This document shows, in pieces, positions 5,310 to 38,061 of a DNA stretch of 64,000 bases. The notes under the pieces were generated by a model. That model had not been told where the DNA came from, ran no database searches, and was given only the letters and a program-made list of their open reading frames with translations. The stretch comes from an uncultured Chloroflexia bacterium. GTDB lineage: Bacteria > Chloroflexota > Limnocylindria > Limnocylindrales > CSP1-4. The position numbers and the translations under genes are program-made. Positions within the stretch are counted from its first letter, which is position 1, and every line of letters begins with the position of its first letter. The DNA lies in NCBI GenBank assembly GCA_963748235.1, contig CAVVHT010000009.1, positions 1,414,756 through 1,478,755 on the forward strand, written 5' to 3'.

Positions 5310-5645
5310 TCACTGCAATCGCAGGAGCAGCGGTGCCTCCGCCCAGAGCTTCTCGAGCTGGTAGAACTCGCGCTCGGGCTGCGCCATGACATGGACGATC
5401 ACCGAGCCGTAGTCGATCAGCAGCCAGTGCGCATTGGCCGAGCCTTCGCGTCCGATCGGCCGTAGACCCTCGTCGCGCAGACCGCCGACGATGCCGTCGG
5501 CGATGGCGCCGAGCTGCCTTTCGGACGTGCCCGAGCAGATGACGAAGTAGTCGGCCAGCGTGGTCAGCTCGCCGATCTCGAGCAGCACGATGTCCGATGC
5601 CTTCTTGTCCGACGCCAGGTCGACGATCTGTCGCGCCAGCGCCAA
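5310..5645 (-). CDS. rsfS: Ribosome silencing factor RsfS (iojap family)
   Basis: 'DIVLLEIGELTTLADYFVICSGTSERQ...HWLLIDYGSVIVHVM'. TTG start at 5645. A longer N-terminus (ATG ~5760, other frame) is possible if another indel is present. Confidence 0.88.
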   Translation of the reverse strand: MALARQIVDLASDKKASDIVLLEIGELTTLADYFVICSGTSERQLGAIADGIVGGLRDEGLRPIGREGSANAHWLLIDYGSVIVHVMAQPEREFYQLEKLWAEAPLLLRLQ

Positions 5646-5782
5646 CGCCTCTTCCTCGGCAGTCGGAGCGTCCTTCTTGCCGCGGCTTGCCGGGCGCGGG
5701 CGTTCGCCGCCGGCGGGGCAGCCCCGGGCGGAGCTGCTCAGGCTGCTGTCGGTCGTCGGTCATCGGGTCCATCTCGGTCGGT

Positions 5783-6364
5783 TCATCCATAGAGCGCGTT
5801 GTCTCCGATGTAAGCCTCAACGGCTGCGGGCACGAGATAGCGGATCGATCGGCCGTGGCGAATGCGGTCGCGGATGTCGGTCGACGAGTGCCCCAGTCGT
5901 GTCGTGACGAGGACGTGAAGCGGTCTTCGCGGCCCGGAAAGTGGCCGCGAACCAGTCCGTGAGACAGATCCGGTAGCCGAGCCGCGGCACGACCGCGACG
6001 CGCGCCAGCTCGAGGATGCGCTCCGGACTGCGCCAATCGGGCAATGCCGTGCGGCCTCGGCCGAGATGATCAGCGTCCAATCGCACCCGGGTTGCGCGGC
6101 CCAGCTGTTCGAGCGTGTCGACGGTGTAGCTCGGCCGATCCGCGTCGAGCTCGATCGTGTCAGCGACGAAGCCGGGTTGTCGGCGATGGCCAGCTCAACC
6201 ATGCGAGCCGGTGCGCCGCAGCGCCTTCGGTGGCGTCCTTGTGCACCGGGCTGCCGGCGGGGATGAACATCACGCCGGCCAGATCGAGCGCGTCACGCGC
6301 CTGCTCGGCGATGGCCAGATGGCCGAAGTGGATCGGGTCGAAGGTGCCGCCGAGGATGCCCCAT
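5783..6364 (-). pseudogene. nadD: Nicotinate-nucleotide adenylyltransferase NadD, frame-disrupted as sequenced (at least 5 frame changes)
   Basis: '[21 protein letters not shown]' (ORF 6160..6753 frame), '[10 protein letters not shown]' and the C-terminal 'SSTDIRDRIRHGRSIRYLVPAAVEAYI' (ORF 5783..6202 frame), and 'LPDWRSPERILELARVAVVPRLGY' (ORF 5817..6086 frame). The start reads ATGGGGCATC; one G fewer would give [10 protein letters not shown]. Confidence 0.8.
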
Positions 6365-6386
6365 TGCTGGCGGCCGACTGATCGCT

Positions 6387-7678
<1,292 letters not shown>

Positions 7679-7729
7679 GTGCGCTGAATCCTATCTGGGC
7701 GGTCGACCACGCCTCGTGCGTCACGGAGC

Positions 7730-7903
7730 GGCGCAATAGTCCGCCGAAGCGCGTCGAACCCGCGTCGCGGCAGTCAGTACCCCTATTGAGGCGTCGCGGA
7801 GGCTTGCGTCACGCCGACGCAATAGTCCGGCTGAATACGGCCGTACCGCGGCACGCAATCGCCGGACGTTTGAGTCGCTGGGTGGCGCAATGCCGCCAGC
7901 GAC
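7730..7903 (-). repeat. Four short GC-stem hairpins, each presenting a conserved (AC)UAUUGCG-type loop, in the rho-obg spacer
   Basis: Plus-strand core CGCAAT at 7732, 7818, 7854 and 7886. Each sits between complementary 4-8 nt arms (7730-7745, 7813-7831, 7849-7864, 7874-7903). Two ~28-nt near-identical copies lie at 7717-7745 and 7804-7831. Confidence 0.5.
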
Positions 7904-7920
7904 CTCGTGGAAGCGACGGG

Positions 7921-9185
7921 TTAGGCCTCGTTCGCCGCGGCGCTCTTGGTCAGCGAGGCGAGGAACTCGGCGTTCGAGTTCGGTCTTCGCGAGGCGGTTG
8001 AGCAGCAGCTCGATGCCCTCGTTGGTGCCGACCGCGGAGAGCATCCGGCGCATCGTCCAGACCATGCGCAGCGTGCCTTCCTCGAGCAGCAGCTCCTCGC
8101 GGCGGGTGCCCGAGCGCTGGACGTCGATCGCCGGGAAGACGCGCTTCTCGGCCAGCTTGCGATCGAGGATGAGCTCCGAGTTGCCGGTGCCCTTGAACTC
8201 CTCGTAGATCACGTCGTCCATGCGCGAGCCGGTGTCGATCAGGCAGGTGCCGATGATCGTCAGCGAGCCGCCCTCCTCGATCTTGCGCGCGGCGCCGAAG
8301 AAGCGCTTGGGCGGGTACAGCGCGATCGGGTCGATACCACCGGACAGCGTTCGGCCCGACGGCGGCAGCGCCAGGTTGTAGGCACGCGCCAGGCGGGTGA
8401 TCGAGTCGAGCAGGATGACCACGTCGCGGCCGGTCTCGACCTGGCGCTTGGCGATCTCGAGCGCCATCTCGGCGGCGCGCGTGTGGTTCTCGGTCGGCTC
8501 GTCGAAGGTCGAGGAGATGACCTCGCCCTTGACCGAGCGGCGCATGTCGGTGACTTCCTCGGGCCGCTCGCCGATGAGCGCGACCATCAGCAGGATCTCG
8601 GGATAGTTGGCGGTGATGCCGTTGGCGATCTGCTTGAGCAGCATCGTCTTGCCCGCCTTGGGCGGCGAGACGATGAGCGCGCGCTGGCCCTTGCCGAGCG
8701 GGTTGACCAGGTTGATCAGCCGCTGGCTCAGGTTCTTGGGGTCCGTCTCGAGGTTGATCAGCTCGATCGGGTGGATCGGCGTCAGCGCGTCGAAGTGCGG
8801 CCGGCGCTTGGCGGTCTCGGGATCGACGCCGTTGACCGACTCGACGCGCACGCAGGCCCCAGTACTTCTCGCCGTCCTTGGGCTGGCGGATCACGCCGCC
8901 GACGCGGTCGCCGGCGCGCAGGCCGAAGCGGCGGACCTGGGAAGAGGAGACGTAGACGTCATCCGGGCTGGGCATCAGGCCGTGCCGGCGCATGAAGCCG
9001 TAGCCGTCGTCGACGATGTCGAGGATGCCGGTCACGTAGACCTGGCCGCTGCGCTCGACCTGGCGCTGGAGGATGTGCTCGACGAGGTCGTCCTGGCGCA
9101 TCTGGCGCGCGTTGTCGACCTCGAGATCGGCGCCGATCTGGACGAGCTGGTTGAAGTTCTTGGATTTGAGTTCGTTGATGTTCAT
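7921..9185 (-). pseudogene. rho: Transcription termination factor Rho, frame-disrupted as sequenced (2 frame changes)
   Basis: N-terminus 'MNINELKSKNFNQLVQIG...' (ORF 7950..9185) switches at ~8855 to ORF 7721..8851 ('RVESVNG...[10 protein letters not shown]...[11 protein letters not shown]'). After ~7985 a third frame reads '[19 protein letters not shown]' and stops at 7921-7923. Confidence 0.9.
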
Positions 9186-9333
9186 TCGGTAATTGGGCTA
9201 CCTGCTGGGATTGGGTGACCGGAAGCGAATCGCCATGCAGCGTCGACCGGGATGGAGATACGGACCCGCCTGGCACGCGCCACACATGAGAACGGCCAGC
9301 GACCGATCAGGTGGGGGAAACGGGAGTAAGAAG

Positions 9334-9361
9334 ATATTAGCACGCGCCGAGCGTGGGTCAA
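9334..9361 (-). promoter_or_regulatory. Candidate housekeeping-sigma promoter for rho: TTGACC-N16-TAATAT
   Basis: Minus strand reads TTGACC (9361-9356), a 16-nt spacer, then TAATAT (9339-9334). Lies in an AT-richer 384-nt spacer about 150 nt upstream of the rho ATG. Confidence 0.4.
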
Positions 9362-9569
9362 GCACAGCGAAAGCTGGCTTGCACGGCCGACGATTCGCCG
9401 CTCGATGTGCGCCTGGCGAGCCACACTCGGCTCGGATTGCAGAATGTGCGATCAGCCGAACTCAACGCCGCTGCACAGGGCGTCAGCGGCACACCGACGT
9501 GCGATCCATGCCCAATCCTGCGCGTTCCTGGCCGATATGGGCGCTCAGCTGCCCACCGGCGCGGCGCGG

Positions 9570-10259
9570 TTAGTTCTGGCGAACGGCCTCGCGCTGCGCA
9601 TCCTTCTCGGCCGCGGCGGCGCGTGCCTTCTCCCAGTCCTCGCGGAAGGTGACGATGCCCTTGTCGGTCAGCGGGTGATGAACCATCTGCTGGAGCACCT
9701 TGAACGGCACCGTGGCGATATGCGAGCCGAGCATCGCGGCGTCGGTCACGTGGCGCGGGTGGCGCACCGACGCGGTCAGCACCTCCGTGTCCAGGTCGTG
9801 CACCTCGACGATCGTCACCAGCTCGCGGATGACGTCCATGCCGTCCTGGTTGATGTCATCGAGCCGGCCGATGAACGGCGACAGCAGCGATGCGCCGGCC
9901 TTGGCCGCGAGCAGGCCCTGGTTGGCGGTGAAGATGAGCGTGCAGTTGGTCTTGATGCCCTCTTCGGCGAATCGGAAGATGGCCTCGAGGCCCTCCTCGC
10001 TCATGGGCACCTTGACGACGATGTTCGGCGCCAGCTTGGCGAACGCGCGACCCTCGCGGAGCATGCCGTCGACGTCCTCGGCCACGACCTCGGCGCTTAC
10101 CGGTCCGGCCGTCAGGTCGCAGATCTGGCGCAGGATGTCCTCGTACGAGCCGCCGATCTTGCCGTACAGCGTCGGGTTCGTGGTGACGCCGTCGAGCACG
10201 CCCCAACGCGCGGCGGTGCGGATCTCTTCGATGTCCGCGGTGTCCAGGAAGAGCTTCAT
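9570..10259 (-). CDS. tal: Transaldolase, short Fsa/TalC-type
   Basis: Intact 229-aa ORF with 'MKLFLDTADIEEI', 'GVTTNPTL', 'VKVP' and 'TNCTLIF'. Confidence 0.9.
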   Translation of the reverse strand: MKLFLDTADIEEIRTAARWGVLDGVTTNPTLYGKIGGSYEDILRQICDLTAGPVSAEVVAEDVDGMLREGRAFAKLAPNIVVKVPMSEEGLEAIFRFAEEGIKTNCTLIFTANQGLLAAKAGASLLSPFIGRLDDINQDGMDVIRELVTIVEVHDLDTEVLTASVRHPRHVTDAAMLGSHIATVPFKVLQQMVHHPLTDKGIVTFREDWEKARAAAAEKDAQREAVRQN

Positions 10260-10389: not shown

Positions 10390-14039
<3,650 letters not shown>

Positions 14040-14080: not shown

Positions 14081-15197
14081 CTACGGCGCCGGCAGGGGCT
14101 GGAGGCGCGCACCCACTCCGGAAGCCTGAGCCGAACGGGATAGCGGCTGACCGTCCCGTCCAGGTCGAGGAACGCGAGCTTCACGTCGTGGTGACCTGCC
14201 AATGCCCTCGCCGACGGCGATCGAGATCAGCAGTCGCTGACCGTCAGGCGTCCAGCGCGGGCCGGTGTAGCGCTCCAGGCCATCCGCCTGGACTCTCGGC
14301 GATGACGGTCTGGCCGCTCCCGTCGGGCTGCATCGATGTAGATCGTCGACGGCTTGCTCATGTCTTTGATCGTGGATGCCGTATGTGCCGAAGACGATCA
14401 CGTCCGCGACCGGGCTCCAGTCGGGATCGCCGGCCCACATGTCCGGGGGAGTGAGGCGTTTGAAGATCGCCGCCGGCTGATCGGCACCGTGGCCACCTGC
14501 GAGCCGATCCACACGTCCTCTTCGGGCTCCGTGTCCCACTGGATTAGCTCGGCGACCGCCGTCCGGCCGTCCCTCGACCAGCGCGGGAAGAGCAGCTCGT
14601 CCGGCACATGGACCGTCGCGACCTCCGTCGTCTCGCCCGAGTCGAGGTCGAGCACCGTCAGGATGCCGACCAGGTCGGATCCGAACCGCTCTCGCCCGTC
14701 CTGGCAGACGTACATCAGCCTGTCGCCGTCGCGGCGAGTAGGCCGGGAAGTTGACGCCCAGCCGGCAGTCGTCGCTCGGTCCGATGAGCTCGCGTCGCCG
14801 CCTGCCCGTCAACGCCGACCGTCCAGATCGAGGTGCCCTCGTACCACTCGCCGACGACGAAAGCGATGGTCTGGCCGTCGGGCGACCAGTCGAGGACCGC
14901 GTGATCCTTGTCCGGCTCGATGTCGGTGGCCAGGGCCCGCCGGCCGGTCCCGTCCTGACGGATCGTTACGACGTCCTTGAAGTCACGCCCCGCGAACCAC
15001 TCGAAGGCGAGCAGCGCCTGGTCAGCCTCCGCTATCGCAGTCGCGGTCGCCGGACTGCTTGGCGCGACGGAGGAGGTGGTCGATGGGGATCCGGGCGGAG
15101 GGGATGATGCGCCGGGTGCCACCGCACAGCCAGTTGCGACCAGCAAAGAAACCGCCAGGACGACCCAGAAAGCCGAAATGCGCATCATCGTGTTCAT
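14081..15197 (-). pseudogene. PD40/TolB-like beta-propeller lipoprotein, paralog 1, frame-disrupted (at least 3 changes)
   Basis: Signal/lipobox 'LLVATGC', P/S/T linker, 'LDWSPDGQTIAF'. Continues through ORFs 14081..14812 and 14398..14715 ('PRWSRDGRTA', 'DPDWSPVADVIVF', 'GPRWTPDGQRLL'). Confidence 0.7.
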
Positions 15198-15265
15198 AAG
15201 GAGGTAGATGCCGCCGAAGACCGATGCGTCTCACGAAGCGACTTGTCGGCGGTGGACGCCGATCC

Positions 15266-16395
15266 CTATTGCGGACGTAGGTGGGCGTGGGTGCGTCGGA
15301 TGCCACCGGATTCCGTGACGAGCGTCCACGACTCAGTCACGAGGTTTCCCTCATCGTCGACGAATGCGATCCGCTCATCGCCCGGTCGAGCACGGACGAA
15401 CATGACTCGATCACCACCGTCCACCCAAGTCGCTTCGATGGCGATGCCTGAGTCGGGCTCAGCCGCGACCAGCTGCGTCAGATCCTGCCCGTCGATGCCG
15501 GCCGAGCTGATTTCGGCTGAGCTGAGGAAATCGGCTTCTGAGGCTGCCGCGGTGAACAGGATGGAATCGCCCGGAGCCCAATCCGGGGCGTCCGCGAATA
15601 CGTCATGGCGGGTGTCAGCCGCTGCGGTTCATCAAGGCCAATGCCGCTGACCGGCGCCACGGCAATGTAGGACTCGGTGCGAGAGGTTTGTGTCGCGTCG
15701 GGATACTTCTCGACGACGAAGACCAGCTGCTCTCCATCAGGCGACCAGCGTGGCGCGTAGTAGGCGCTGAGCCCGTCGGCCGTAGCGGCGACGGTGCTCA
15801 GCTCTCCGGTCGCGACGTCCAATATCTGGATCTCGGACGGACCCCAAGTTCCGTCGGGATCGAGGTCGTATCTGGCCAGGGCGATCATCGATTCGTCGGG
15901 CGACCATGCCGGATAAGCAAGCTGGAGACACGGCGCCTCACAGCTCACGAGGAGATGGGTATCCGACCCATCGGCCTGGGCCACCCAAATCTGCACCTCA
16001 GGCTCGTCAGTGAGGTCACTCTCCAGGTACATGTCGAACGCAATCGAGTCACCATCCGGCGACCAGGCTGGGTGTCCGACGTCAAAGCCGGGGATCGGAT
16101 CGGTCAGCAACGCGTGCTCATCAGTGCCATCGGGTCGAACCAACCGAATCGCATCTGCGCCTTCGCCGGAATCGGTTGCCTGGTAGACGATCCACGGCTC
16201 GCCCGGCAGAACGCCGCTCGACCCTGGTGACGGAGATCCTGTCGAAGGGTCCGAGCGCTTCGCAGTCGGCGACGGCGTACCCGACGCCTCTGGGGAGGCG
16301 GGGCTCGCAAGCGGCGTGGACGCACATGCAAACACCAATAGAGCGGCTATGGCTAGTGCGAGTCGCCGCGCCCGAAACGGTCGCTTTGTGGTCAT
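15266..16395 (-). pseudogene. PD40/TolB-like beta-propeller lipoprotein, paralog 2, one frame change (~15610)
   Basis: 'LLVFAC' lipobox, 'PGEPWIVY', 'HPAWSPDGDSIAF', 'YPAWSPDES', 'APRWSPDGEQLVF'. The tail 'HDVFADAPDWAPGDSILF...RTHAHLRPQ' is in another frame and ends at TAG 15266-15268. Confidence 0.75.
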
Positions 16396-16444
16396 GCCAG
16401 GTAGATGCCGCTCGCGACTCGGGCGTCCCTGGTTCTAAGCGTGT

Positions 16445-17559
16445 TCATGGCAACGGACGAAGACGAGGATGCGTTCCGCCAGGCGCACTCGGGGTCGTAG
16501 TCGCTGGTCGTAGGTTGGATCCGCCTGCGTCGACAGCCCACATTTGCGCCGTGGTGTAGTCCTCGCCGGTCACAAGCACGAAGATGACGCCACTTCCGTC
16601 GGGCAACCAGGTCGGCTGGACCGCATTCAACTCATCGTCGACCAGGGGCTCAGCACCAGAGCCATCAGTCCCCATCGTGTAGAGGTCATAGGCATCGCTG
16701 CCGTCCACAGGACGCCGCGAGTAGACAATCCGGCCATCGGTCGGATGCCAGTCGGGATAGTTGGCCCACTCGTCGGGTTCGGTCAGCTTGGTGATCGTTG
16801 CCGGGCTTGCCGCCAGGTCGACCATGGCAACCGACGTCGATTTCAGCTCCGAGTCCTCGGTGATGTTGGTCCATGTCTCGATCTGGGTGACGATCCTGTT
16901 CCGGTCTGGTGACCAGCGCGGATAGGCGAAGTAGTCGGCGCCAGCGCTCTCGGCGACCGTCGTCACCGCGCCGGATTTAACGTTCACGACTTCGAGCGTG
17001 CTGCCGTCGGTTATGCGGTTCTGATGCTCCCAGCGAACGAAAAGGACCGACTCGCCGTCTGGTGACCAGGCCGGAAACTCGGCGGCATCGCATGGCAGTA
17101 CGCAGTCGTACAGCACTCGGGAATTGCTGCCGTCGGCGTCGGAGATCCAGATGTCGCGATGCCCGTCTTCGTACGGCCAGACGTCGATCACAAAGGCGAG
17201 TTGAGAGCCGTCCGGCGACCAATCCGGATGGAGCTGCCAACGTCACCCGCGTTGTCGCCGGCGGCAATCGGCGCGTCGGGCGTCGCCCAATGCTCGTCTG
17301 TGCCATCGGGCCTGATGACGACGTTGCCGACACTTTCTGCTTCAGGTACACCCCACTCGTAGACGATCCACGCTTGGCCGGGGCGAACTCTTGTAGCTGA
17401 CTCCGGACTCGAGGTTGGTGAATCCGTAGGTGACGGCCTCGGCTCGTCGGTCGCTTGGACAGTGGGCGACGGCGTCGCCACCGGTGGCGCTGAGCCCGCG
17501 CATGCATTCGCAACGAGTGCCAAAGTGATGACCACACCCAAGCCGGTGTTTCGCTTCAT
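16445..17559 (-). pseudogene. PD40/TolB-like beta-propeller lipoprotein, paralog 3, one frame change (~17225)
   Basis: 'MKRNTGLGVVITLALVANAC' (inside ORF 17188..17607), 'PGQAWIVYEW'. Then ORF 16445..17191 ('FPAWSPDGESVLF', 'YPRWSPDRNRIV', 'YPDWHPTDGRIVY', ends 'GGTHPRLRPLP'). Confidence 0.75.
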
Positions 17560-17610
17560 GCAGTACTGATGCCGCTGGAGATCGATCTGTCCCACGATCA
17601 GGGCCATCGG

Positions 17611-18779
17611 TCACTCTGCGTTCGGGCCCCAGGCTGGATGGTTCATTTCCACGTTGGGTGCCTGCACGAGCACCGAGACGTTCGATCCGTCGGAATCCAT
17701 CAGACAGATTGGGAGCCCGCAGCCGAACACGATGCGGGACCCGTCGGGCGAGAAAGCGGGCTTGAAGGCGTCATGTTCGATATCGCCATACAGATAGTCG
17801 GGCGGCGCGGTCGGATCGTCAGCGGGCACGATCTCTATCTGCTGGCCGATGCCCGCGCTGCCGTCCTGGTTCGTGTTGTAGATGATCGATCGGCCGTCGC
17901 GCGTCCAATCTGGATGCACGATGTCGCCAGTGTTCGTCGTCGTCAAACGTCGCTCTTCGCCGGTCGTCAGGTTGCGGATCGTCAGTGCCCACGAATCCGT
18001 GGCTGGGTAGTAGCGGTCGTAGACGAGCTCATCTCCGTCAGGCGACAGGCGCCCTTCGCCACCGTAGGTATTCACGTCCCACAGAGGTCGCTGGTTGGCA
18101 CCGTCGCTATCCATCTGCCATATCGAGTGATGCACGTTGCCACACTCGATGGACCGATCGCAGGGCTCGGGAGCTACGGAGTACACAATCGACCGGCCGT
18201 CCGGTGTCCAGTCGGGCCACTCGGCATAGCCACGAGTGCTGGTCAGGACCTGCAGGTCGCTGCCATTGACATCGATCGTCGCAATCTGGAACGAGCCGTC
18301 CGACATGACGAGGGAGAAGGCAAGGCGACTGCCATCAGGCGAGAAACGCGGCCGCTCCACTTCGCACGAAAGGATGCGGACGGCGTCGGTTCCGTCGGGA
18401 TCAATCATGTAGATACCGCCAAGCAGCTGGGCGACGACGGTGTAGCGGCTGACCGGACCAAAGGCGATCCGCCCAGCGGGGTCGGGAGCCCGTCCTTGAG
18501 CTCGGCGATCTCGTTGAACCATCCGGGAGTTGGCCGGTCAGTGCATGCGGGCACGACCGCCGCGGGGGTGGGGGTTGCAGCCGCACTCGGCGTCGCAGCC
18601 GGCGTCGTGCGAACAGTGGGATCGACAGTCTGTTGGATGCTGGGCTCCGGAGAACGGCTCGCGGCCGTCGTTGGGCCCGGCGAATGTGTTCGGGCCGCGC
18701 CGGGTGAGCATCCACCCAGTAGAAGGGCGGCTACGGTCAGACATGCGAGCGTCCGCCGGCCGCTCATGGCTCGAGCCAC
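17611..18779 (-). pseudogene. PD40/TolB-like beta-propeller lipoprotein, paralog 4, one frame change (~18490)
   Basis: 'LLLGGCS' lipobox in ORF 18405..18779. The body is in ORF 17611..18522 ('RPRFSPDGSRLAF', 'WPDWTPDGRSIVY', 'RLSPDGDELVY', 'HPDWTRDGRSIIY', 'KPAFSPDGSRIVF'). Confidence 0.75.
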
Positions 18780-20138
18780 TGCCAGGTAAGTGACCCGACG
18801 TTGTCTTCGAGCTCGGCCAGCACCACCGGAGGATCATCCGAGCTCGGATCCAGGGCTTCCAGCCACGAGCGAAAGTGTTGCTCACCAGAGGGCGATGGAG
18901 CCAGTTCCTCGACGCGAGAGATCAGCAGCAGTCCGGCATCAGGCGACCAGGCCAGCTCTTGCAGTCCTTCGATCTCCGGGAATTCGTTGGGATCCCCCGC
19001 AGGTCGACCCGCCTCCACGGGTTGGACGACGAGGACTGGCATACCCGAATCCTCGTCCCAGTAGTGGTAGGCGATCGACCCGCCATCAGGCGACCAGCGG
19101 GGATCGCGCTCGTCAAGGGGCGTCGATGTCAACGGCACATCCGACAAGCCATCTGCCGCAACGACGAAAAGATCCAGGTCCGGATACAGGCTGCCGTGGT
19201 CGTGGCCATACACATCGAGTGCCGGCGCAGGCACTCCATCCGGCACACCGTTGTAGACGATGTATCTACTGTCTGGCGACCAGGCAAACTAGGGACTGTC
19301 AGTGCCCGGCCGCGACGTGATCCGTCTCACGTCGCCACTCTCGACATCTACGACGTCGATGCAACTGCGGTAATCGAACCCTCGTTCTCGCCGTTGCTAA
19401 GTCTCTGCATCACCGCGAAGGCAATGCTCTTCCCGTCCGGCGACCAGACCATGTCCCAGTAGTGGATGCCGCCTCTCGATGGAGGTTCGGCCATCAGGAA
19501 CCGGCGCTCGCCGGATTCGACATCGATAGCCAATAGGAGGACGTCGAGCTCTCGTCGCCTTCGCCGTCGCCGTCACGCAACTTCACCACGACCTGCGTCG
19601 CGTCCGGTGAAAACGCATGGCCGATCTGTTGGTGTGCGGAGATCTCGCGTGGGTCCGAGCCATCGGCATTGGCTCGAATACGCGCACGATCCGGTTCAAA
19701 CGTCACCCCAGCCGGTGAAGTAGGTCAGCCACCTGCCGTCGGCCGAGAAGAGCGGTCACGTTCCCTGAGCGATCTCGCGATCATTGCTGCCGTCCGCATT
19801 CATCAGATGGATGTGGTTGTAGGGCGGCTCATTGAGGTCACTGATCACATAGGCGATGAGGCCATTCCGGCCGATCGGCTTGGGCGTCGGTTGTTGAGCA
19901 GAAGGGACGCCGCGACGATCGCAACCACAAGAGCGAGCAGGAGGCCGGTAATGATCAGCATGTAGGAGGGCGACATTGCCGCTCGACCGAGCAACGGCCA
20001 TGTGAACTGTGGCCCCGTTCGCGCGACGGCATCGCGCGCGATGTCGGTTGCGTCGAAGTCCCGCACCAGAATATCGGCATAGGCCTGGACGCGTCGCTCG
20101 AAGCGCGCCTCGAAGCTGGTCATCTCGAACTCACTCAT
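18764..20138 (-). pseudogene. Putative anti-sigma factor (short cytoplasmic segment plus one TM helix) fused to a PD40 beta-propeller; 4 frame changes and 2 in-frame stops
   Basis: ATG 20138 overlaps the sigma stop (ATGAGTGA). 'MSEFEMTSFEARFERRV...MLIITGLLLALVVAIVAASLLL' TM helix, then PD40 pieces in ORFs 19756..20001, 19494..19706, 19348..19533 and 18764..19246. In-frame TGA at 19756-19758 and TAG at 19289-19291. Confidence 0.65.
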
Positions 20139-20673
20139 CCCCCAACTCCTTGCGCAGGCGTTCGAGCAGGCGCGCCAGACGCGCGCGCGTGCCGGACGCG
20201 GACATGCCGGTCGCTCGACCCAGCTCGGTGGAGTTGAGTCCGGCGACGTAGCGCAGGGCGAGAGCGCCCGATCGTCCGGGCGCCAGCTTGGCGAGCGCGA
20301 TGGCCAGGTCGATATCGGTCGATGGCCGGCTGGACGGGTGACAGGTCGAGAGACCGGTGCCACCACCGTGATCTCGCGGACGCTCCGGCGATATCGGCTG
20401 CGAACGATCTGACGAGCCTCGTTGGCGGCGATAGAGCACAGCCACGAGCCGAAGGCGATCGGGCTCGCGCACGCTGTCGAGGCGACGCCAGACGATCGGC
20501 CAGGCTGCGGCGACGGCCTCCTCGGCCAGATCGGCATTGCCGAGTCACGACGTAGCTAAGGCGAACCATGTCCGCGTGATGACGGTGGACGATGGCGCGA
20601 ATGCCGCCTCGTCGCCCTCGACGGCGAGCCGTATCAGCCCCTCCGCTGATCTCCGCGGCGACCGGGGCCGCAT
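20131..20673 (-). pseudogene. ECF (sigma-70 family group 4) sigma factor, frame-disrupted (at least 4 changes)
   Basis: '[25 protein letters not shown]' from ATG 20673, then 'RAIVHRHHADMVRLSYVVT', 'NADLAEEAVAAAWPIVWRRLDSVREPDR', 'WLCSIAANEARQIVRSRYRR', and region 4 'DLAIALAKLAPGRSGALALRYVAGLNSTELGRATGMSASGTRARLARLLERLRKEL'. These lie in alternating frames. Confidence 0.7.
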
Positions 20674-20734
20674 GCCGATCACGCCACACAGATGCTCGCC
20701 GAGCGGTCAAGTGATTTACCGCCCGGCGGCATAG

Positions 20735-21923
20735 TTAGTCGGTCGGCTGGAGGAAGCCGGCATAGCCATAGCCGAGCTCGTCGCCGAACCAGGTCAACTC
20801 GGGCGCGTTGATGTGCGCGGCGCCAGTGCCATCAGCATTCATCAGCGCCCATGTCTGGAAGCCCCAGAACGATGATTCGGCCGTCCGACGTCCAGCTCGG
20901 TGCCCAGCCGTCCGAGAAGTCGCCGCCGACCGAGACACAGGACTCGCAGAGATGAGTGAGGTTCGCGCCGTCCGGCGAGACGGTCCAGATGCCGGTATTG
21001 CCGGGGAAGTCGCCCCATCCCTCCGTTTCCCGGTTGGGCATCGTGCTGAAGACGATCGTTGAGCCGTCGGGCGACCAGTCCGGGTCGGCTGCCCATTCGC
21101 CAACGGGTCTGGGTAGTTCGCGAACGCGGGAGCCGTCGGCCTGGACGATGAAGAGCCGCGTCTCAGTCGCGTACTGGTCGTCGGCGGCCAGCAACGTCCG
21201 CTGGTAGACGATCTCCGAACCGTCGGGCGACCAGCTCGGTTGGGCGACGTAGCCGTCGGACACCGGAAAGCGGGTTTCCTCCAGGTATTCGACCTGGCCG
21301 CCGGCCAGATCGCGGATACCGATCTCGCTGAAGTTCGCGTCAGGGCGCGGGTCGAAGTGGACGAAAGCAATTCGCTGGCCGTCGGACGAGAAGGCGGGCT
21401 CCAGCTCCAGGCACTCGTTCTCATCGCCGCTACAGGATGTCGAGATGAGGGTCGGCGCGCCACCGTCGATTGGGACGGTCCAGACCCGGTACGGAGCGAG
21501 CCACGTCGAGTATGCGACGGTCTGTCCGTCAGGCGAAATGTCCGGTGCAGCCTTCCCGGCGGGCGTCCCAGGAGCAAGCTCGTGCAGGTCGGTGCCGTCG
21601 GCGCGCGCCAGCCAGATCATCCGGTTGTCGAAGTCGAACCCCTCTGATGAGCCATCCGGCGCCTGGCCGAAATGCTCGAACACGATCCAACCTGGCAGAT
21701 CGGTGTAGCCGGCAGACGTGCTGCGCAACGTTGGTCGAGGCGTGGACGACTCCAGGTCGGTCGAGCTGGTTGGGGAGGGCTCGCTGGAGGCACTTGGGGT
21801 AGGAGCCTGCGGTGATGCTGACGTCGCCACCGGCGACGGCGCGGGCACGCCTCCCGAGCAACCGATCACCACGGCAGTCAGGAACGCGGCCGCGACGACG
21901 GAACCACTTCGGATGTTGAGCAT
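20735..21923 (-). pseudogene. PD40/TolB-like beta-propeller lipoprotein, paralog 6, one frame change (~20870)
   Basis: 'AVVIGCSGG' lipobox, 'LPGWIVFEH', 'APDISPDGQTVAY', 'EPAFSSDGQRIAF', 'QPSWSPDGSEIVY', 'DPDWSPDGSTIVF'. The tail 'QTWALMNADGTGAAHI...GFLQPTD' is in the ORF 20735..21577 frame. GGGAGG RBS 5 nt before the ATG. Confidence 0.75.
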
Positions 21924-21979
21924 TGCGACCTCCCGGAGGGTGACTTGTCCCCTGGGAGGTAGATGCGCGATGCAAACAA

Positions 21980-22004
21980 AACGTCCCGCCGGCTGAAATG
22001 TCCC
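21980..22004 (-). promoter_or_regulatory. Candidate ECF-type promoter GGGAC-N16-CGTT upstream of the propeller/sigma operon
   Basis: Minus strand reads GGGAC (22004-22000), a 16-nt spacer, then CGTT (21983-21980) followed by TTGTTTG. About 57 nt upstream of the paralog-6 ATG. The -35 deviates from the canonical GGAAC. Confidence 0.3.
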
Positions 22005-22022: not shown

Positions 22023-22610
22023 TCAGGCGCGCCGAAGAGGTAGGAGGAGGATCAGCCCGAGAACGACGAACGGCGCGAGGATGATCAGCGCCCCAACGAT
22101 CGGTGCTCCGAATGGGTTCCAGGGTGGCTCGCCGAAAGTGACTCGCGGCGCCACCGCCGATGTCACCTCGTTGGCGCTCGCGCTGACCTGGTAGACCCCG
22201 GCGATCGACACGTCGACCTGCCCATACGGCACGCGACCGGTGTTGTTGACGTTGATCGCGAAGAGCGAATCGGACAGGCGCGAGATCGCAACCGGACCGT
22301 TCGGGCCGCCTATCACGACCTGCAGATCAGACGGCATCTCGGCCGAGTCGTCCTCGCCGAAGATCCCGTCCTCCTCGAAGCTGACGTAAACCGAACCTGC
22401 GGGCAGGCTCACTGTTCCCGTGCCCGGCACCTCTACCCGTCCGTAGGCAGACGCGTTGTTGATCGGCAGTCCGCCAAGCATGAACCACACCAGGCCGAGG
22501 ATGGCACCCGTGCCGAGCACGAAGAGGGCCACCCACCACGGCGCGAGCGAGCGACGGCGGCGGGTCGACGGCGGCGGGGGCGGGGGATATGCCACGTATG
22601 GATTAGCCAT
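22023..22610 (-). CDS. Hypothetical membrane protein (N- and C-terminal TM helices, Pro-rich N-terminus)
   Basis: 195-aa ORF with 'MANPYVAYPPPPPPSTRRRR' followed by a TM helix, and C-terminal 'IVGALIILAPFVVLGLILLL'. No recognisable domain. Confidence 0.6.
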   Translation of the reverse strand: MANPYVAYPPPPPPSTRRRRSLAPWWVALFVLGTGAILGLVWFMLGGLPINNASAYGRVEVPGTGTVSLPAGSVYVSFEEDGIFGEDDSAEMPSDLQVVIGGPNGPVAISRLSDSLFAINVNNTGRVPYGQVDVSIAGVYQVSASANEVTSAVAPRVTFGEPPWNPFGAPIVGALIILAPFVVLGLILLLPLRRA

Positions 22611-34243: not shown

Positions 34244-35953
34244 ATGGCGACCAAGACGCCGGCAAAGGCGCCGGCAAAGGCGCCGGCGAAGGTCCCGACC
34301 AAAACGCCGACCAAGGCGCCGATCAAGAAGGCACGCAGCAACGCTGGGACCACGAACGCTACGCCCACCGCAGGGCAGGCACACGTGTACCGGCCGACCG
34401 AGCCACAGGGCATCGAGAACCCGTTGCGAGCCGGCCTTGTGCTGGAGCGCGTGCCGGAGCCGTGCGTACTCGTCGTCTTCGGCGCGACCGGCGACCTGAC
34501 CGCACGCAAGATCATGCCCGCCGTCTACAACCTGCGCCGGTCGGGGCTCCTGCCCGCCGAGACGTCGGTGCTCGGCTTCTCGCGCCGGCCGCTGTCCGAC
34601 GACGACTTCCGCAACATGATGAGCGAGTCAGTCAGCGCCAACTCACGCGTCAAGGTTGAGCAGGGCCTGTGGGACGACTTTGCCAGCGGTTTGTTCTACC
34701 AGCCCGGCGAGTTCGGCGATCGCACCGCCTACCGCGACCTGGCCGAGCGGCTCGAGCAGATCGACGCAGCCCGCGGCACGCGCGGCAACCGGCTCTTTTA
34801 CCTGGCCACGCCGCCGTCGGCGTACGAGGAGATCGTCGCCAACCTTGGTCGCGTCGGGCTCCACAAGCAGGGCCAGCGCGAGGGCTGGGCGCGGATCGTG
34901 GTTGAGAAGCCGTTCGGGCACGATCTCGACTCGGCGCGCGAGCTGAACGACGCACTGGTCAGCGTCTTCGACGAGTCGCAGGTGTACCGCATCGACCACT
35001 ACCTGGGCAAGGAGACGGTGCGCAACCTGCTCGTCTTCCGCTTCGCCAACGGCATCTTCGAGCCGCTCTGGAATCGGCGCTACGTCGACCACGTTCAGAT
35101 CACCGTGGCCGAGGATCTCGGCGTCGAGGGCCGCGGCGACTTCTACGAGGAGGCCGGCGCGAGCCGCGACATCGTCCAGAACCACCTGCTGCAGCTGCTG
35201 ACCCTGGTTGCGATGGAGCCGCCGATCGCGTTCGAGGCCGACGCGCTGCGCGACGAGAAGGTCCGCGTGCTGCGCGCCGTCGAGACCAACTGGACCGAAG
35301 CCCGCGCCCGGGCGACGGTGGTGCGCGGCCAGTACACCTCCGGCTGGGTCGGCGACAAGCACGTCGTCGGTTACCGCGAGGAGGAGGAGGTCAAGCCCGA
35401 TTCGGACGTCGAGACATTCGTCGCCATGAAGCTCGAGGTCCAGAACTGGCGCTGGGCCGACGTTCCCTTCTACCTGCGCACGGGCAAGCGGATGGCCCGC
35501 CGGGCAACCGAGATCGCGATCCAGTTCAAGCTGCCGCCGCTGATGCTGTTCAGCGAGAGCAACACGCCGCCAGAGCCGAACCTGCTCGCGCTGCGCATCC
35601 AGCCCGATGAGGGGATCATGCTCCGCTTCGCGGCCAAGGTTCCCCAGCTCGGGCTCGACGTGCGCAGCGTGGCGATGGACTTCACCTATGGCCTGTCGTT
35701 CACGCGCGACGCTCCCGAGGCGTACGAGACGTTGTTGCTCGACGCGATGCTCGGCGACGCGTCGCTGTTCACCCGCGCCGACGAGGTTGAGGCGGCGTGG
35801 GCGATCGTCAGCCCGCTCAATGAGCTGTGGCGCAAGTGGACCGACGAGGGTGGCGCCGATGCCGACATGTGCTTCTACGAGGCCGGCACGTGGGGCCCGA
35901 GCAATGCCGACGACCTGATCGAGCACGACGGGCGGCGCTGGCGAAGGCTATGA
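34244..35953 (+). CDS. zwf: Glucose-6-phosphate 1-dehydrogenase with Lys/Pro/Ala-rich N-terminal extension
   Basis: 'VVFGATGDLTARK', 'RIDHYLGKE', 'DIVQNHLLQ'. ATG 34244 lies inside track ORF 34193..35953. Confidence 0.9.
   Translation: MATKTPAKAPAKAPAKVPTKTPTKAPIKKARSNAGTTNATPTAGQAHVYRPTEPQGIENPLRAGLVLERVPEPCVLVVFGATGDLTARKIMPAVYNLRRSGLLPAETSVLGFSRRPLSDDDFRNMMSESVSANSRVKVEQGLWDDFASGLFYQPGEFGDRTAYRDLAERLEQIDAARGTRGNRLFYLATPPSAYEEIVANLGRVGLHKQGQREGWARIVVEKPFGHDLDSARELNDALVSVFDESQVYRIDHYLGKETVRNLLVFRFANGIFEPLWNRRYVDHVQITVAEDLGVEGRGDFYEEAGASRDIVQNHLLQLLTLVAMEPPIAFEADALRDEKVRVLRAVETNWTEARARATVVRGQYTSGWVGDKHVVGYREEEEVKPDSDVETFVAMKLEVQNWRWADVPFYLRTGKRMARRATEIAIQFKLPPLMLFSESNTPPEPNLLALRIQPDEGIMLRFAAKVPQLGLDVRSVAMDFTYGLSFTRDAPEAYETLLLDAMLGDASLFTRADEVEAAWAIVSPLNELWRKWTDEGGADADMCFYEAGTWGPSNADDLIEHDGRRWRRL
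34250..34330 (+). repeat. Coding tandem repeat (about 12-nt unit GCCGGCAAAGGC and variants) encoding TPAKAPAKAPAKVPTKTPTKAPIKK
   Basis: Read directly at the 5' end of zwf. Confidence 0.6.
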
Positions 35954-37209
35954 CCAACTCGCAGTTCAGCACCACCACGCTGGAGCTCGATCAGAGCACG
36001 TCGCGCTGGCACGTCCGTGCGCACAGCATCTCCGAGTGCGTCGGCCAGCTCAGCCGAGTGTGGACCACGGCCGCGGCGGAGACCGAGCACCCCGATGCCA
36101 CGACCGAGGAGGTCGAGGCAACGATGGGCGATCCGCGCATCGGCGAGCAGCTTGGCGACGCGCAATCGGTCCGTGTCCGGATGCGAACGAGCGTGCTGAC
36201 ACTGGTCGTCGTGGCGCCACGGCCCGAGCTGTCGGAACGTGCCCTGGCTGCGATCAACGCCCTCCATCAGCGCCACCCTTCGCGGGCAATCGTCGTGTCG
36301 CCGGGCGATTTCGACGGGCCGTCGACGATGGACGCGCACATCTACGCCGAGTGCAAGGTGTCCGAGCGGTCCGACTCGGAGGTGTGCACCGAGCAGATCC
36401 TGATCAAGACCGGCGGCGAGCTGTCGCAGCACCTGTCGCGCGTCATCACCCCGCTGCTCATCCACGACCTGCCCGTCGTCGTCTGGTGGCCCGACGATCC
36501 GCCGTTCGGCGTCGAAGCAATTCAACGAGGTCGTCGGCACTGCCGACCGGCTGCTGGTCGATTCGGGCAGCTTCCAGGAGGATGACGGCAAGCGAATGGC
36601 CGGCCTGGCCACGGTCGTCTCGGAGGGCGTATCGGTGACCGACGTCGGCTGGCTGCGCCTGACTCTCTGGCGCGAGCTGTTGGCCGGTCTGTTCGACCAC
36701 CCGCTGCTGACACCGCGAGCTCGAGCACATCCGCAGCGTGCGCGTGGACGTCGCTCGGCCGACCAACACCTTGCGCATCTCGAAGGCGGCGTTCTACCTC
36801 GGCTGGCTCGCTTCGCGCCTGCAATGGGAGGTCGACGAGCCGCTCGTCCACGACAAGCAGGACGACGTTCTGCGCGGCTCGTTCCGCCGCGGTCGGCGCG
36901 ATCATCCCGGTCGAGCTGCGACCGGTGCGCGCCACGCTCGACGGGTCGCAGCGCGCGGCTGGGTCCCTCGTCCGCGTCGACGTCGAGGCGACGCGTGCCA
37001 GGTCAACGGTCCGCGCCCGGATCACGCGTCAGGCCGACCACCTGCTGGCCACGGCCGATTGGAACGGCGCCCAGGTGACGCGGCGCGCCGGCCGCCTCGA
37101 GCCGTTCGAGGAGACGCCATTCATTGCCGAGGCGCTCGAGCAATCGGGCAACGACCGCATCTTCGAGCAGTCGCTCATCCGCGCCGTGAGGCTCGTAAGC
37201 AGTGGCTGA
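35950..37209 (+). pseudogene. opcA: OpcA, G6PDH assembly/allosteric partner, frame-disrupted (3 changes at ~36510, ~36715, ~36900)
   Basis: ATG overlaps the zwf stop (ATGA). 'LTLVVVAP...LPVVVWWPDDPPFG' (ORF 35827..), 'FNEVVGTADRLLVDSGSF...VTDVGWLRLTLWRELLAGLFDHP' (ORF 36596..), 'VRVDVARPTNTLRISKAAFYLGWLASRL' (ORF 36738..), and the tail in ORF 36925..37209. Confidence 0.8.
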
Positions 37210-38061
37210 CCCGACGCGCGAGGACGCGCAAATGATCGTCCTCGATGATGCCGACGCAGTGGCGCGCGAGGCCGCCCGACGGGTGTTGGAGAAGCTCCGT
37301 GAAGCGATCGAGGCGCGCGGCGTCGCCCACATAGCGCTGACCGGCGGATCGTCGGCCGTGCCGCTCTACCACGAGCTCACTACGCCCGAGTCGCGTGCCG
37401 CGCTCGACTGGGACCACGTCCACCTGTGGTGGGGCGACGAGCGATTCGTGCCCATCGACCATCCCGAATCGAACGCGGGAATGGCTTATCGGCTGCTGTT
37501 GGCGATGCCCACCCGCGCGGCGCAGACGGGCAGTGGCGGCGATTACGACGACGTCGACGGCGGGCGACGTTCCAGGCCTGCTGATCAATCCGGAGAACGT
37601 CCATCCGGTCGAGGTGGAAGAGACGCTCGGCGACAGCGAACCGGTCGAGCTGGCCGCGCAGCGCTACTGCCGTGACCTGGCACGCTGGGTCCCCACCGCC
37701 CGCCACGGCGTGCCACGCTTCGACGTCATTCTGACCGGCATCGGGCCCGACGGTCACATCATGTCGATCTTCCCGGGCAGCGCGGCACTGGCGCCGGACG
37801 CGCCGGCGGCGATCGGCGTCCCGGCGCCGACGCACGTGGAGCCTCACCTGCCGCGGGTCACGCTCAGCGCGCGGCTGCTGCCATTGGCTGGCGTGGTCTT
37901 CGTGATGGCCTCTGGCGAAGGCAAGCGCGAGGTGCTGGCCAACATCCTCGGGATTCGAGCGCGATCCGCAGCGCTGGCCGGCGCAGGCGGCGCTGCTACC
38001 TAATTCGGTCTGGCTGCTCGATCGCGCGAGCGTCCCGCCCGATCACCCCGCGGCGAGGTAG
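37202..38061 (+). pseudogene. pgl: 6-phosphogluconolactonase, frame-disrupted (2 changes at ~37550 and ~37955)
   Basis: 'HIALTGGSSAVPLY...WWGDERFVP' (ORF 37202..) and 'FDVILTGIGPDGHIMSIFPGS...VMASGEGKREVLANIL' (ORF 37395..). The tail 'RDPQRWPAQAALLPNSVWLLDRA' is in a third frame and ends at TAG 38059-38061. Confidence 0.75.

Follow-up and report, generated by a model that had tools for sequence, protein, structure and literature searches.

What does a row of TolB-like beta-propeller genes do around the gene of an extracytoplasmic function (ECF) sigma factor in an uncultured Chloroflexia bacterium? This question is raised by a 64-kb stretch of contig CAVVHT010000009.1 (hereafter, the window), in which seven minus-strand genes span positions 21923-14081: a propeller lipoprotein gene (G1), the ECF sigma gene, an anti-sigma gene whose product also ends in a propeller, and then four more propeller lipoprotein genes (G4, G5, G6 and G7). 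An earlier note on this DNA had described seven same-strand genes forming a tandem unit, and this was confirmed. We found that the array is an expanded, strain-variable form of a known system, in which an ECF sigma factor is paired with a TolB-like anti-sigma factor. On balance, we favor a reading of the locus as an envelope signalling island made of an ECF sigma factor, a propeller anti-sigma factor and, as its output, propeller lipoproteins.

Organization of the propeller array

The genes of the array are the following (aa, amino acids).

20735..21923, minus strand: G1, PD40 propeller lipoprotein of ~395 aa; lipobox VVIGC; one frame break at ~20871; stop codon TAA at 20737-20735
20131..20682, minus strand: ECF (group 4) sigma gene; four frame breaks at ~20597, 20545, 20448 and 20362
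18764..20138, minus strand: anti-sigma gene, ~455 aa; ~55 cytoplasmic residues, a transmembrane (TM) helix (residues ~57-79) and a C-terminal PD40 propeller
17611..18767, minus strand: G4, PD40 propeller lipoprotein; lipobox LLGGC; one frame break near 18470-18540
16445..17559, minus strand: G5, PD40 propeller lipoprotein; lipobox LVANAC; one frame break at ~17231
15266..16395, minus strand: G6, PD40 propeller lipoprotein; lipobox LVFAC; one frame break at ~15605-15614
14081..15197, minus strand: G7, PD40 propeller lipoprotein; lipobox LVATGC; at least 3-5 frame breaks

Pfam detected PD40 repeats in all six propeller genes. The stop of the sigma gene and the start of the anti-sigma gene overlap by 8 nt (ATGAGTGA), the stop of the anti-sigma gene and the start of G4 overlap as ATGA, and the remaining intergenic gaps of the array are 49-68 nt. 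Judged from the sequence, the sigma gene is translationally coupled to the anti-sigma gene, which is coupled in turn to G4, and the other four PD40 lipoprotein genes (G1, G5, G6 and G7) flank this core. The arrangement agrees with the earlier description of one propeller that has no lipobox, lies behind a cytoplasmic segment and a TM helix, and is coupled to the ECF sigma gene. No further PD40 or ECF genes were found outside the array in the 64-kb window, and neither a sigma70-type promoter nor a convincing terminator was found inside it.

All five lipoprotein genes were observed to have the lipobox previously assigned to them, each followed by a P/S/T-rich stretch. When the pattern [LVI][ASTVI][GAS]C was applied, a canonical fit was obtained for G1 (VIGC), G4 (LGGC), G6 (VFAC) and G7 (ATGC). 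The lipobox of G5 (ANAC) is non-canonical, with N at position -2, and its 77%-identical orthologue P0242 has VNAC. The entry motif 'PGxxWIV(Y/F)', which had been described as shared, was present in G1, G5 and G6 and absent from G4 and G7. All seven genes are frame-broken, with approximately 15-20 breaks in 7.9 kb; the breaks were mapped by a frameshift-aware dynamic programme in which intact relatives were aligned to the DNA.

Sigma factor and anti-sigma factor

The resident sigma gene codes for an ECF (group 4) sigma factor of ~180 aa with regions 2 and 4. After repair of its frame, it passed the sigma70-ECF model TIGR02937 (45.2 bits, with a cut-off of 42.9) and gave a Pfam match to Sigma70 region 4. 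The repaired protein was also 53% identical, across all regions, to SigE of L002, a metagenome contig of 2.3 Mb with a pyrG that shares 85% DNA identity with that of the window; L002 sigE has both Sigma70_r2 and r4_2. Sequence matches in PDB were SigE, CnrH, SigK and SigL, and the best subfamily model was SigE-fam_strep (70 bits, which is below its cut-off of 141).

The anti-sigma gene is an orthologue of L002 asE, and its N-terminal region is conserved in 8 full-length homologues. In an AlphaFold2 (AF2) model of this region, two helices (residues 3-21 and 30-39) are followed by the TM helix (57-79), with a pTM of 0.28 for 80 aa. In this single-pass layout, the N-terminus is on the cytoplasmic side and the propeller on the outer side of the membrane. 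Class I anti-sigma domains (ASDI/ZAS) consist of four helices in about 80-90 aa and often carry an HxxxCxxC zinc motif. A domain of this type was ruled out for the array protein: only two helices were predicted, there was no Pfam match, and residues 1-56 contain neither Cys nor His.

By layout, the sigma/anti-sigma pair resembles Tt-RpoE1/Tt-TolB of Thermoanaerobacter (Caldanaerobacter) tengcongensis, in which Tt-TolB uses its 39-aa N-terminus to bind and inhibit Tt-RpoE1 (Liu et al. 2012, PMC3397946). In both cases an ECF sigma gene in a monoderm is directly followed by the gene of a protein with a short cytoplasmic N-terminus, a single TM segment and a C-terminal TolB-like (PD40) domain. However, Tt-TolB has 645 aa compared with ~455 aa for the array anti-sigma factor, the hosts belong to different phyla (Bacillota and Chloroflexota, respectively), and no lipoprotein paralogues or tandem modules were described for the Tt-RpoE1 system in that study. 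The novelty originally proposed for the array was thus overstated, since the pairing of an ECF sigma factor and a TolB-like anti-sigma factor had already been shown experimentally in a monoderm. The main text of the ECF reclassification paper makes no mention of propellers, PD40 or TolB.

Identity of the propeller proteins

Each of the six array proteins is a bare six-bladed PD40 propeller, anchored by a lipid or a TM helix, and resembles TolB in fold only. The AF2 model of an intact G1 copy (pLDDT 84.7, pTM 0.80) shows a disordered tether of ~75 residues (1-75) and then an all-beta domain of 24 strands, with a pLDDT of >90 in the propeller. A fold search of PDB with this model gave TolB propellers as top matches (E ~3e-14, 16-18% identity) and S9-peptidase propellers as the second tier. 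The array proteins are 330-455 aa in length, and their intact homologues, with 345-455 aa, consist of the propeller only.

The fold matches, as well as the name 'Tol biopolymer transport system component' under which source databases list the homologues, could be taken to mean that the array genes code for genuine TolB of a Tol-Pal-like trans-envelope system. We consider this extremely improbable. With the NCBIfam TolB equivalog (TIGR02800) the six propellers scored 54.9-112.7 bits, far under the cut-off of 343, and aligned at profile positions 159-398, i.e., in the propeller, only. The N-terminal domain of TolB (TolB_N, PF04052) was not detected by Pfam, and residues 1-75 are the disordered lipoprotein tether. 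TolB orthology was rejected on the basis of these scores and the missing N-domain. In addition, the array is flanked by LysM, HAD, LCP, pyrG and dinB genes, with no tolQ, tolR, tolA or pal in this neighbourhood, and the host lineage, Chloroflexota, is generally regarded as monoderm. TolB of Tol-Pal (PDB 1crz, 2ivz and 4r40) has the six-bladed PD40 propeller in common with the array proteins, but it possesses an N-terminal alpha/beta domain which they do not have, and it is soluble in the periplasm, whereas they are lipid- or TM-anchored. The earlier note saw a puzzle in the occurrence of propellers of a diderm system, Tol-Pal, together with monoderm-type envelope genes; the puzzle dissolves because the array propellers are not TolB orthologues.

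It is also very unlikely that the propellers represent the N-terminal half of S9 (prolyl oligopeptidase/DPP-IV) peptidases whose genes were split or frameshifted. The second-tier fold matches and weak hits to DPPIV_N and Peptidase_S9_N agree with such an origin, but a Peptidase_S9 catalytic domain was found in no frame of the array, and the split-peptidase reading was rejected. Moreover, each gene closes with a conserved C-terminal motif, after which the signal peptide of the next gene follows, and the intact homologues are propellers without any further domain. Complete S9 peptidases, which had been named beforehand as a competing identity, were therefore not what we found; hidden Markov model (HMM) searches gave weak matches to N-terminal propellers alone.

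Sequence identity among the six paralogues is 24-33%. Because it is this low, the paralogues are old, and recent tandem duplication was rejected as the origin of the array. The balance between the two architectures was opposite among the homologues of G1 and those of G5. Anti-sigma type proteins (~57 cytoplasmic residues, a TM helix and a propeller) accounted for 84 of the 121 best G1 homologues and lipoproteins for 16, and among the 120 best homologues of G5 lipoproteins were found in 76 cases. Some PD40 family members (P0151, P0158, P0215 and P0241) were fused to a Trans_reg_C winged-helix domain, as in ToxR/CadC-like one-component regulators, or to a Ser/Thr kinase domain. Because of these fusions, the PD40 propeller is apparently a reusable extracytoplasmic sensor module.

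Promoter motif and candidate leaderless starts

A promoter-like element was found upstream of four genes of the array.

21960..21987, minus strand: GGGAC-N16-GCATCTA before G1; the leader after it is 36 nt long and contains a GGGAGG Shine-Dalgarno sequence
20689..20716, minus strand: AATCAC-N16-GCATCTG before the sigma gene, with the GTG start 6 nt downstream, consistent with a leaderless transcript
16402..16429, minus strand: GGGAC-N16-GCATCTA before G6, with ATG 6 nt downstream (leaderless type)
15205..15232, minus strand: GAGAC-N16-GCATCTA before G7, with ATG 7 nt downstream (leaderless type)

The general form of the motif is G(G/A)(G/A)(A/T)C-N16-17-GCATCT. Its exact 10-mer GCATCTACCT occurs at three sites in 64 kb, only upstream of G1, G6 and G7. 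When up to one mismatch was allowed in this 10-mer, 9 matches were found in the window (1.74 expected), and the full bipartite motif had 4 matches (0.34 expected). The motif was also present before sigma genes in six related loci, i.e., L001, L002 (sigA and sigE), L003, L011, L012 and L013, where the start codon was always 5-7 nt past the motif, and it was observed upstream of a PD40 gene in L013. The -35 element comes in two flavours, GAATCAC and GGGACAC. For G6 and G7, leaderless translation is suggested because there is no room for a ribosome-binding site. On the strength of the sequence pattern, we read the motif as a putative ECF-type promoter that would give leaderless or short-leader transcripts, be autoregulatory for the sigma operon, and be shared with the lipoprotein genes. 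Tt-RpoE1 is likewise autoregulated, from the promoter GTTAC-N16-CGTC (PMC3397946). This promoter is similar to the array motif in its bipartite structure, N16 spacing and C(G)TC-type -10 element, although the sequences of the two motifs differ. We also observed that CCTCC(TT) directly follows GCATCTA at 15198-15211, 16396-16408 and 21950-21966; it resembles the anti-Shine-Dalgarno end of 16S rRNA and not a Shine-Dalgarno sequence.

Related loci and strain variation

When GTDB species representatives were scanned, relatives were found only in metagenome-assembled genomes (MAGs) of Chloroflexota, labelled Candidatus Limnocylindrales, 'uncultured Chloroflexia' or 'Chloroflexota bacterium', and in one short contig labelled Ilumatobacteraceae. 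Eight loci with a G1-like propeller were compared, and in six of them an ECF sigma gene is directly upstream of this propeller. Thus, sigma genes and propeller genes occur together in related genomes, and the lack of such co-occurrence, against which the earlier note had cautioned, was not observed. Together with the predominance of the anti-sigma type among G1 homologues, the linkage supports the earlier suggestion of an extracytoplasmic sensing or binding module whose sensor belongs to the same propeller family.

Further loci illustrated how such modules are combined. L002 has a syntenic island beside pyrG-dinB, with three sigma/PD40-anti-sigma pairs and two lipoproteins. L011, L012 and L013, which were reached via G5 homologues, contain repeated modules of an ECF sigma gene, a propeller anti-sigma gene (PD40 or Kelch) and one or more PD40 lipoprotein genes, and their islands have similar flanks, with an ABC transporter and HAD on one side and an abhydrolase or GDSL lipase on the other. 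Some of the anti-sigma genes code for Kelch instead of PD40, with PD40 lipoprotein genes still next to them (L011 7659-9074, L012 5515-7926 and L013 12865-14175).

The closest comparison was provided by L001, whose flanks are 93-97% identical to the window at the nucleotide level. In L001 there are two extra sigma modules upstream of G1 (5600-9960), in a 4.3-kb block bounded on both sides by GCATCTACCTC, and G1 is joined directly to the G6 orthologue behind a sigma-type promoter (11228-12420). Across the loci compared, the position of the island is conserved and its content highly variable. In L003 (9740-9960) we observed GGGACAC-N17-GCATCTAT, with a GTG 6 nt further on, a sigma remnant of ~30 codons and then a G1-type lipoprotein gene. 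As far as can be read from the DNA, this looks like a deletion that placed the lipoprotein gene behind the sigma promoter. Both the GCATCTACCTC-bounded block of L001 and the remnant in L003 are consistent with cassette reshuffling at the promoter element.

A gene for a 195-aa protein is located between the LysM protein and G1 (22023-22610, minus strand). The protein is Pro-rich at the N-terminus, carries hydrophobic segments close to either end, and gave no Pfam match. The DNA alignment between L001 and the window extends through this gene.

Proposed mechanism and the role of the lipoproteins

If the locus is a signalling island, the anti-sigma N-terminus would hold the sigma factor in the resting state. 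Binding of an extracytoplasmic cue by the anti-sigma propeller would then release the sigma factor, by proteolysis or by conformational change; by analogy with TolB and S9 propellers, the cue would most likely be an unfolded peptide or a cell-wall-derived ligand. The freed sigma factor would transcribe its own operon (sigma, anti-sigma, G4 and G5) from AATCAC-N16-GCATCTG, and this factor or a close paralogue would also transcribe G1, G6 and G7 from GGGAC/GAGAC-N16-GCATCTA. Because transcription of both the sigma operon and these three genes is proposed to depend on the sigma factor, the tethered propeller lipoproteins would be the output, and, like RseB, CseA or LpqB, they may have a second function as co-sensors for the anti-sigma factor.

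Several observations weigh against this mechanism. Binding of the sigma factor by the anti-sigma N-terminus, the signal and the use of the promoters are steps that we infer, and the N-terminus gave no Pfam match at E<=1. The -35 elements of G1, G6 and G7 (GGGAC/GAGAC) are unlike the AATCAC of the resident sigma gene and match the sigA-type promoters of L002, L003, L012 and L013; because of this match, a sigma factor encoded elsewhere may drive these three genes. The motif is absent upstream of L002 lipC and lipD. L001, a close strain, does not have the sigma, anti-sigma, G4, G5 and G7 genes of the window. In addition, the array is low in GC (0.63 at 16-20 kb vs 0.67-0.70 elsewhere), with a weak GC3 signal at 15-21 kb. 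Frame breaks reach a density of ~2-2.5 per kb in the array, compared with 1 in 1.7 kb in pyrG; they are concentrated in the sigma gene (4 in 0.55 kb), the anti-sigma gene and G7, and they are not located at homopolymers.

Alternatively, the lipoproteins could be independent surface propellers for binding or scavenging, e.g., for capture of peptides or polymers, that are neither regulated by nor partnered with the adjacent sigma/anti-sigma pair. G5-type proteins are mostly stand-alone lipoproteins (76/120), the motif is missing before the two L002 lipoprotein genes, the lipoproteins are just 24-33% identical to the anti-sigma propeller, and hydrolase genes (GDSL lipase and abhydrolase) are frequent neighbours. 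However, the ATGA overlap joins the anti-sigma gene to G4, and the same tight order of anti-sigma and then PD40 genes was seen in L011 and L012. The ECF-type motif of the sigma genes also precedes G1, G6, G7 and the PD40 gene of L013, and no sigma70-type promoter is available within the array. We regard independent scavenging as somewhat unlikely, and retain the lipoproteins as the probable output of the sigma factor.

Frame breaks: assembly errors or decay

The frame breaks raise a separate question, i.e., whether the array still functions in this strain. G1 is broken as well: relative to P0121, the intact 395-aa copy in L001 (98% identical), it contains one extra C at 20871, after which the C-terminus continues in another frame to the real stop, TAA at 20737-20735. 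The anti-sigma gene has at least four shifts plus two stop crossings; two of the six shifts placed by the alignment (19023 and 18959) were dropped as artefacts, the frame being open from 19288 to 18767. A GC3-periodicity HMM called the whole array 'non-coding'; it was unusable there because codon-position GC is weak, and was used for frame-switch patches elsewhere only.

Housekeeping genes of the window are also frame-broken, including obg and nadD (6100-7700, minus strand), opcA and the 6-phosphogluconolactonase gene pgl (35900-38050, plus strand), and pyrG. For example, at least four frame switches were counted within ~1.3 kb of obg, and a shift at 12383 (minus strand), in the 3' end of pyrG, fuses this gene with the dinB-family gene downstream of it into an open reading frame of 939 aa. 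Two flank blocks aligned between the window and L001 (5.6 kb and 2.3 kb) contain 25 gap characters each. Among public genomes, the nearest relatives are long-read MAGs in the style of Microflora Danica, with Flye-style contig names. Since the essential genes obg, nadD and pyrG are broken alike, and given the indels relative to L001, the most likely cause of the frame breaks is indel error in the assembly of a long-read MAG.

Alternatively, the frameshifts and stops could be real and the array a decaying, non-functional relic in this strain, as part of a dispensable and strain-variable island. The number of lesions in 7.9 kb, their higher density in the sigma gene, anti-sigma gene and G7, their position away from homopolymers, the lower GC with weak GC3 at 15-21 kb, the genes missing from L001 and the ~30-codon sigma remnant in L003 all fit such decay. 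On the other hand, essential genes in the window (obg and nadD, as well as opcA/pgl and pyrG) show equally dense frame switching. The repaired proteins retain full-length similarity and motifs, as illustrated by the sigma factor with its 53% identity to L002 SigE, and conserved flanks that are intact in the window are heavily fragmented in L001, the second long-read contig. Decay is thus an unlikely explanation, and assembly indels are preferred. Foreign origin, low expression and local errors in the sequence are possible reasons for the low GC and weak GC3 of the array.

Comparison with known systems and significance

In several known systems, such as RseA-RseB for E. coli sigmaE, CseA in the Streptomyces sigE-cseABC operon, and LpqB with MtrAB, the operon of the membrane signal transducer also codes for a partner that is extracytoplasmic or a lipoprotein; LpqB has, in addition, a propeller-like domain. 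RseB, CseA and LpqB are unrelated in sequence to the array lipoproteins, whereas the candidate partner in the array shares the fold family of the sensor. A further parallel is found in the multiple paralogous SigI/RsgI pairs of Clostridium thermocellum, where the extracellular anti-sigma domains and the secreted proteins under their control draw on the same families of modules. However, SigI is not an ECF sigma factor, and RsgI sensors are carbohydrate-binding or glycoside-hydrolase domains rather than propellers.

As a speculative extension, to which we give a rather low probability, the region from LysM/HAD to pyrG would be a hypervariable cassette island that is specific to Chloroflexota of Limnocylindria type. 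A cassette would be built from a sigma factor behind a leaderless ECF promoter, a PD40 or Kelch anti-sigma factor and a matching co-receptor lipoprotein, and recombination at the conserved promoter repeat (GCATCTACCTC) would lead to gain, loss and exchange of cassettes. If this is true, each strain would have its own set of sensors for surface ligands, e.g., phage, toxins, or fragments of foreign cell walls or polymers, and the cassettes would represent three-component sigma signalling with paralogous sensor and co-sensor, which has not been described so far.

Current views are not overturned by the locus, as anti-sigma factors with diverse ectodomains, including TolB-like ones, are already established for ECF sigma factors. 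Limnocylindria and related Chloroflexota are abundant uncultured bacteria of soil and freshwater, and almost nothing is known about their envelope biology and signalling. For experiments, the locus provides a promoter consensus that can be tested, a set of predicted leaderless starts, and defined pairs of proteins to be screened for interactions and ligands. It shows beta-propellers, PD40 and sometimes Kelch, as sensor domains of ECF sigma systems in Limnocylindria-related Chloroflexota, with tethered lipoproteins supplied by the same propeller family under the same type of predicted promoter, and with a module content that varies between strains that are 93-97% identical.

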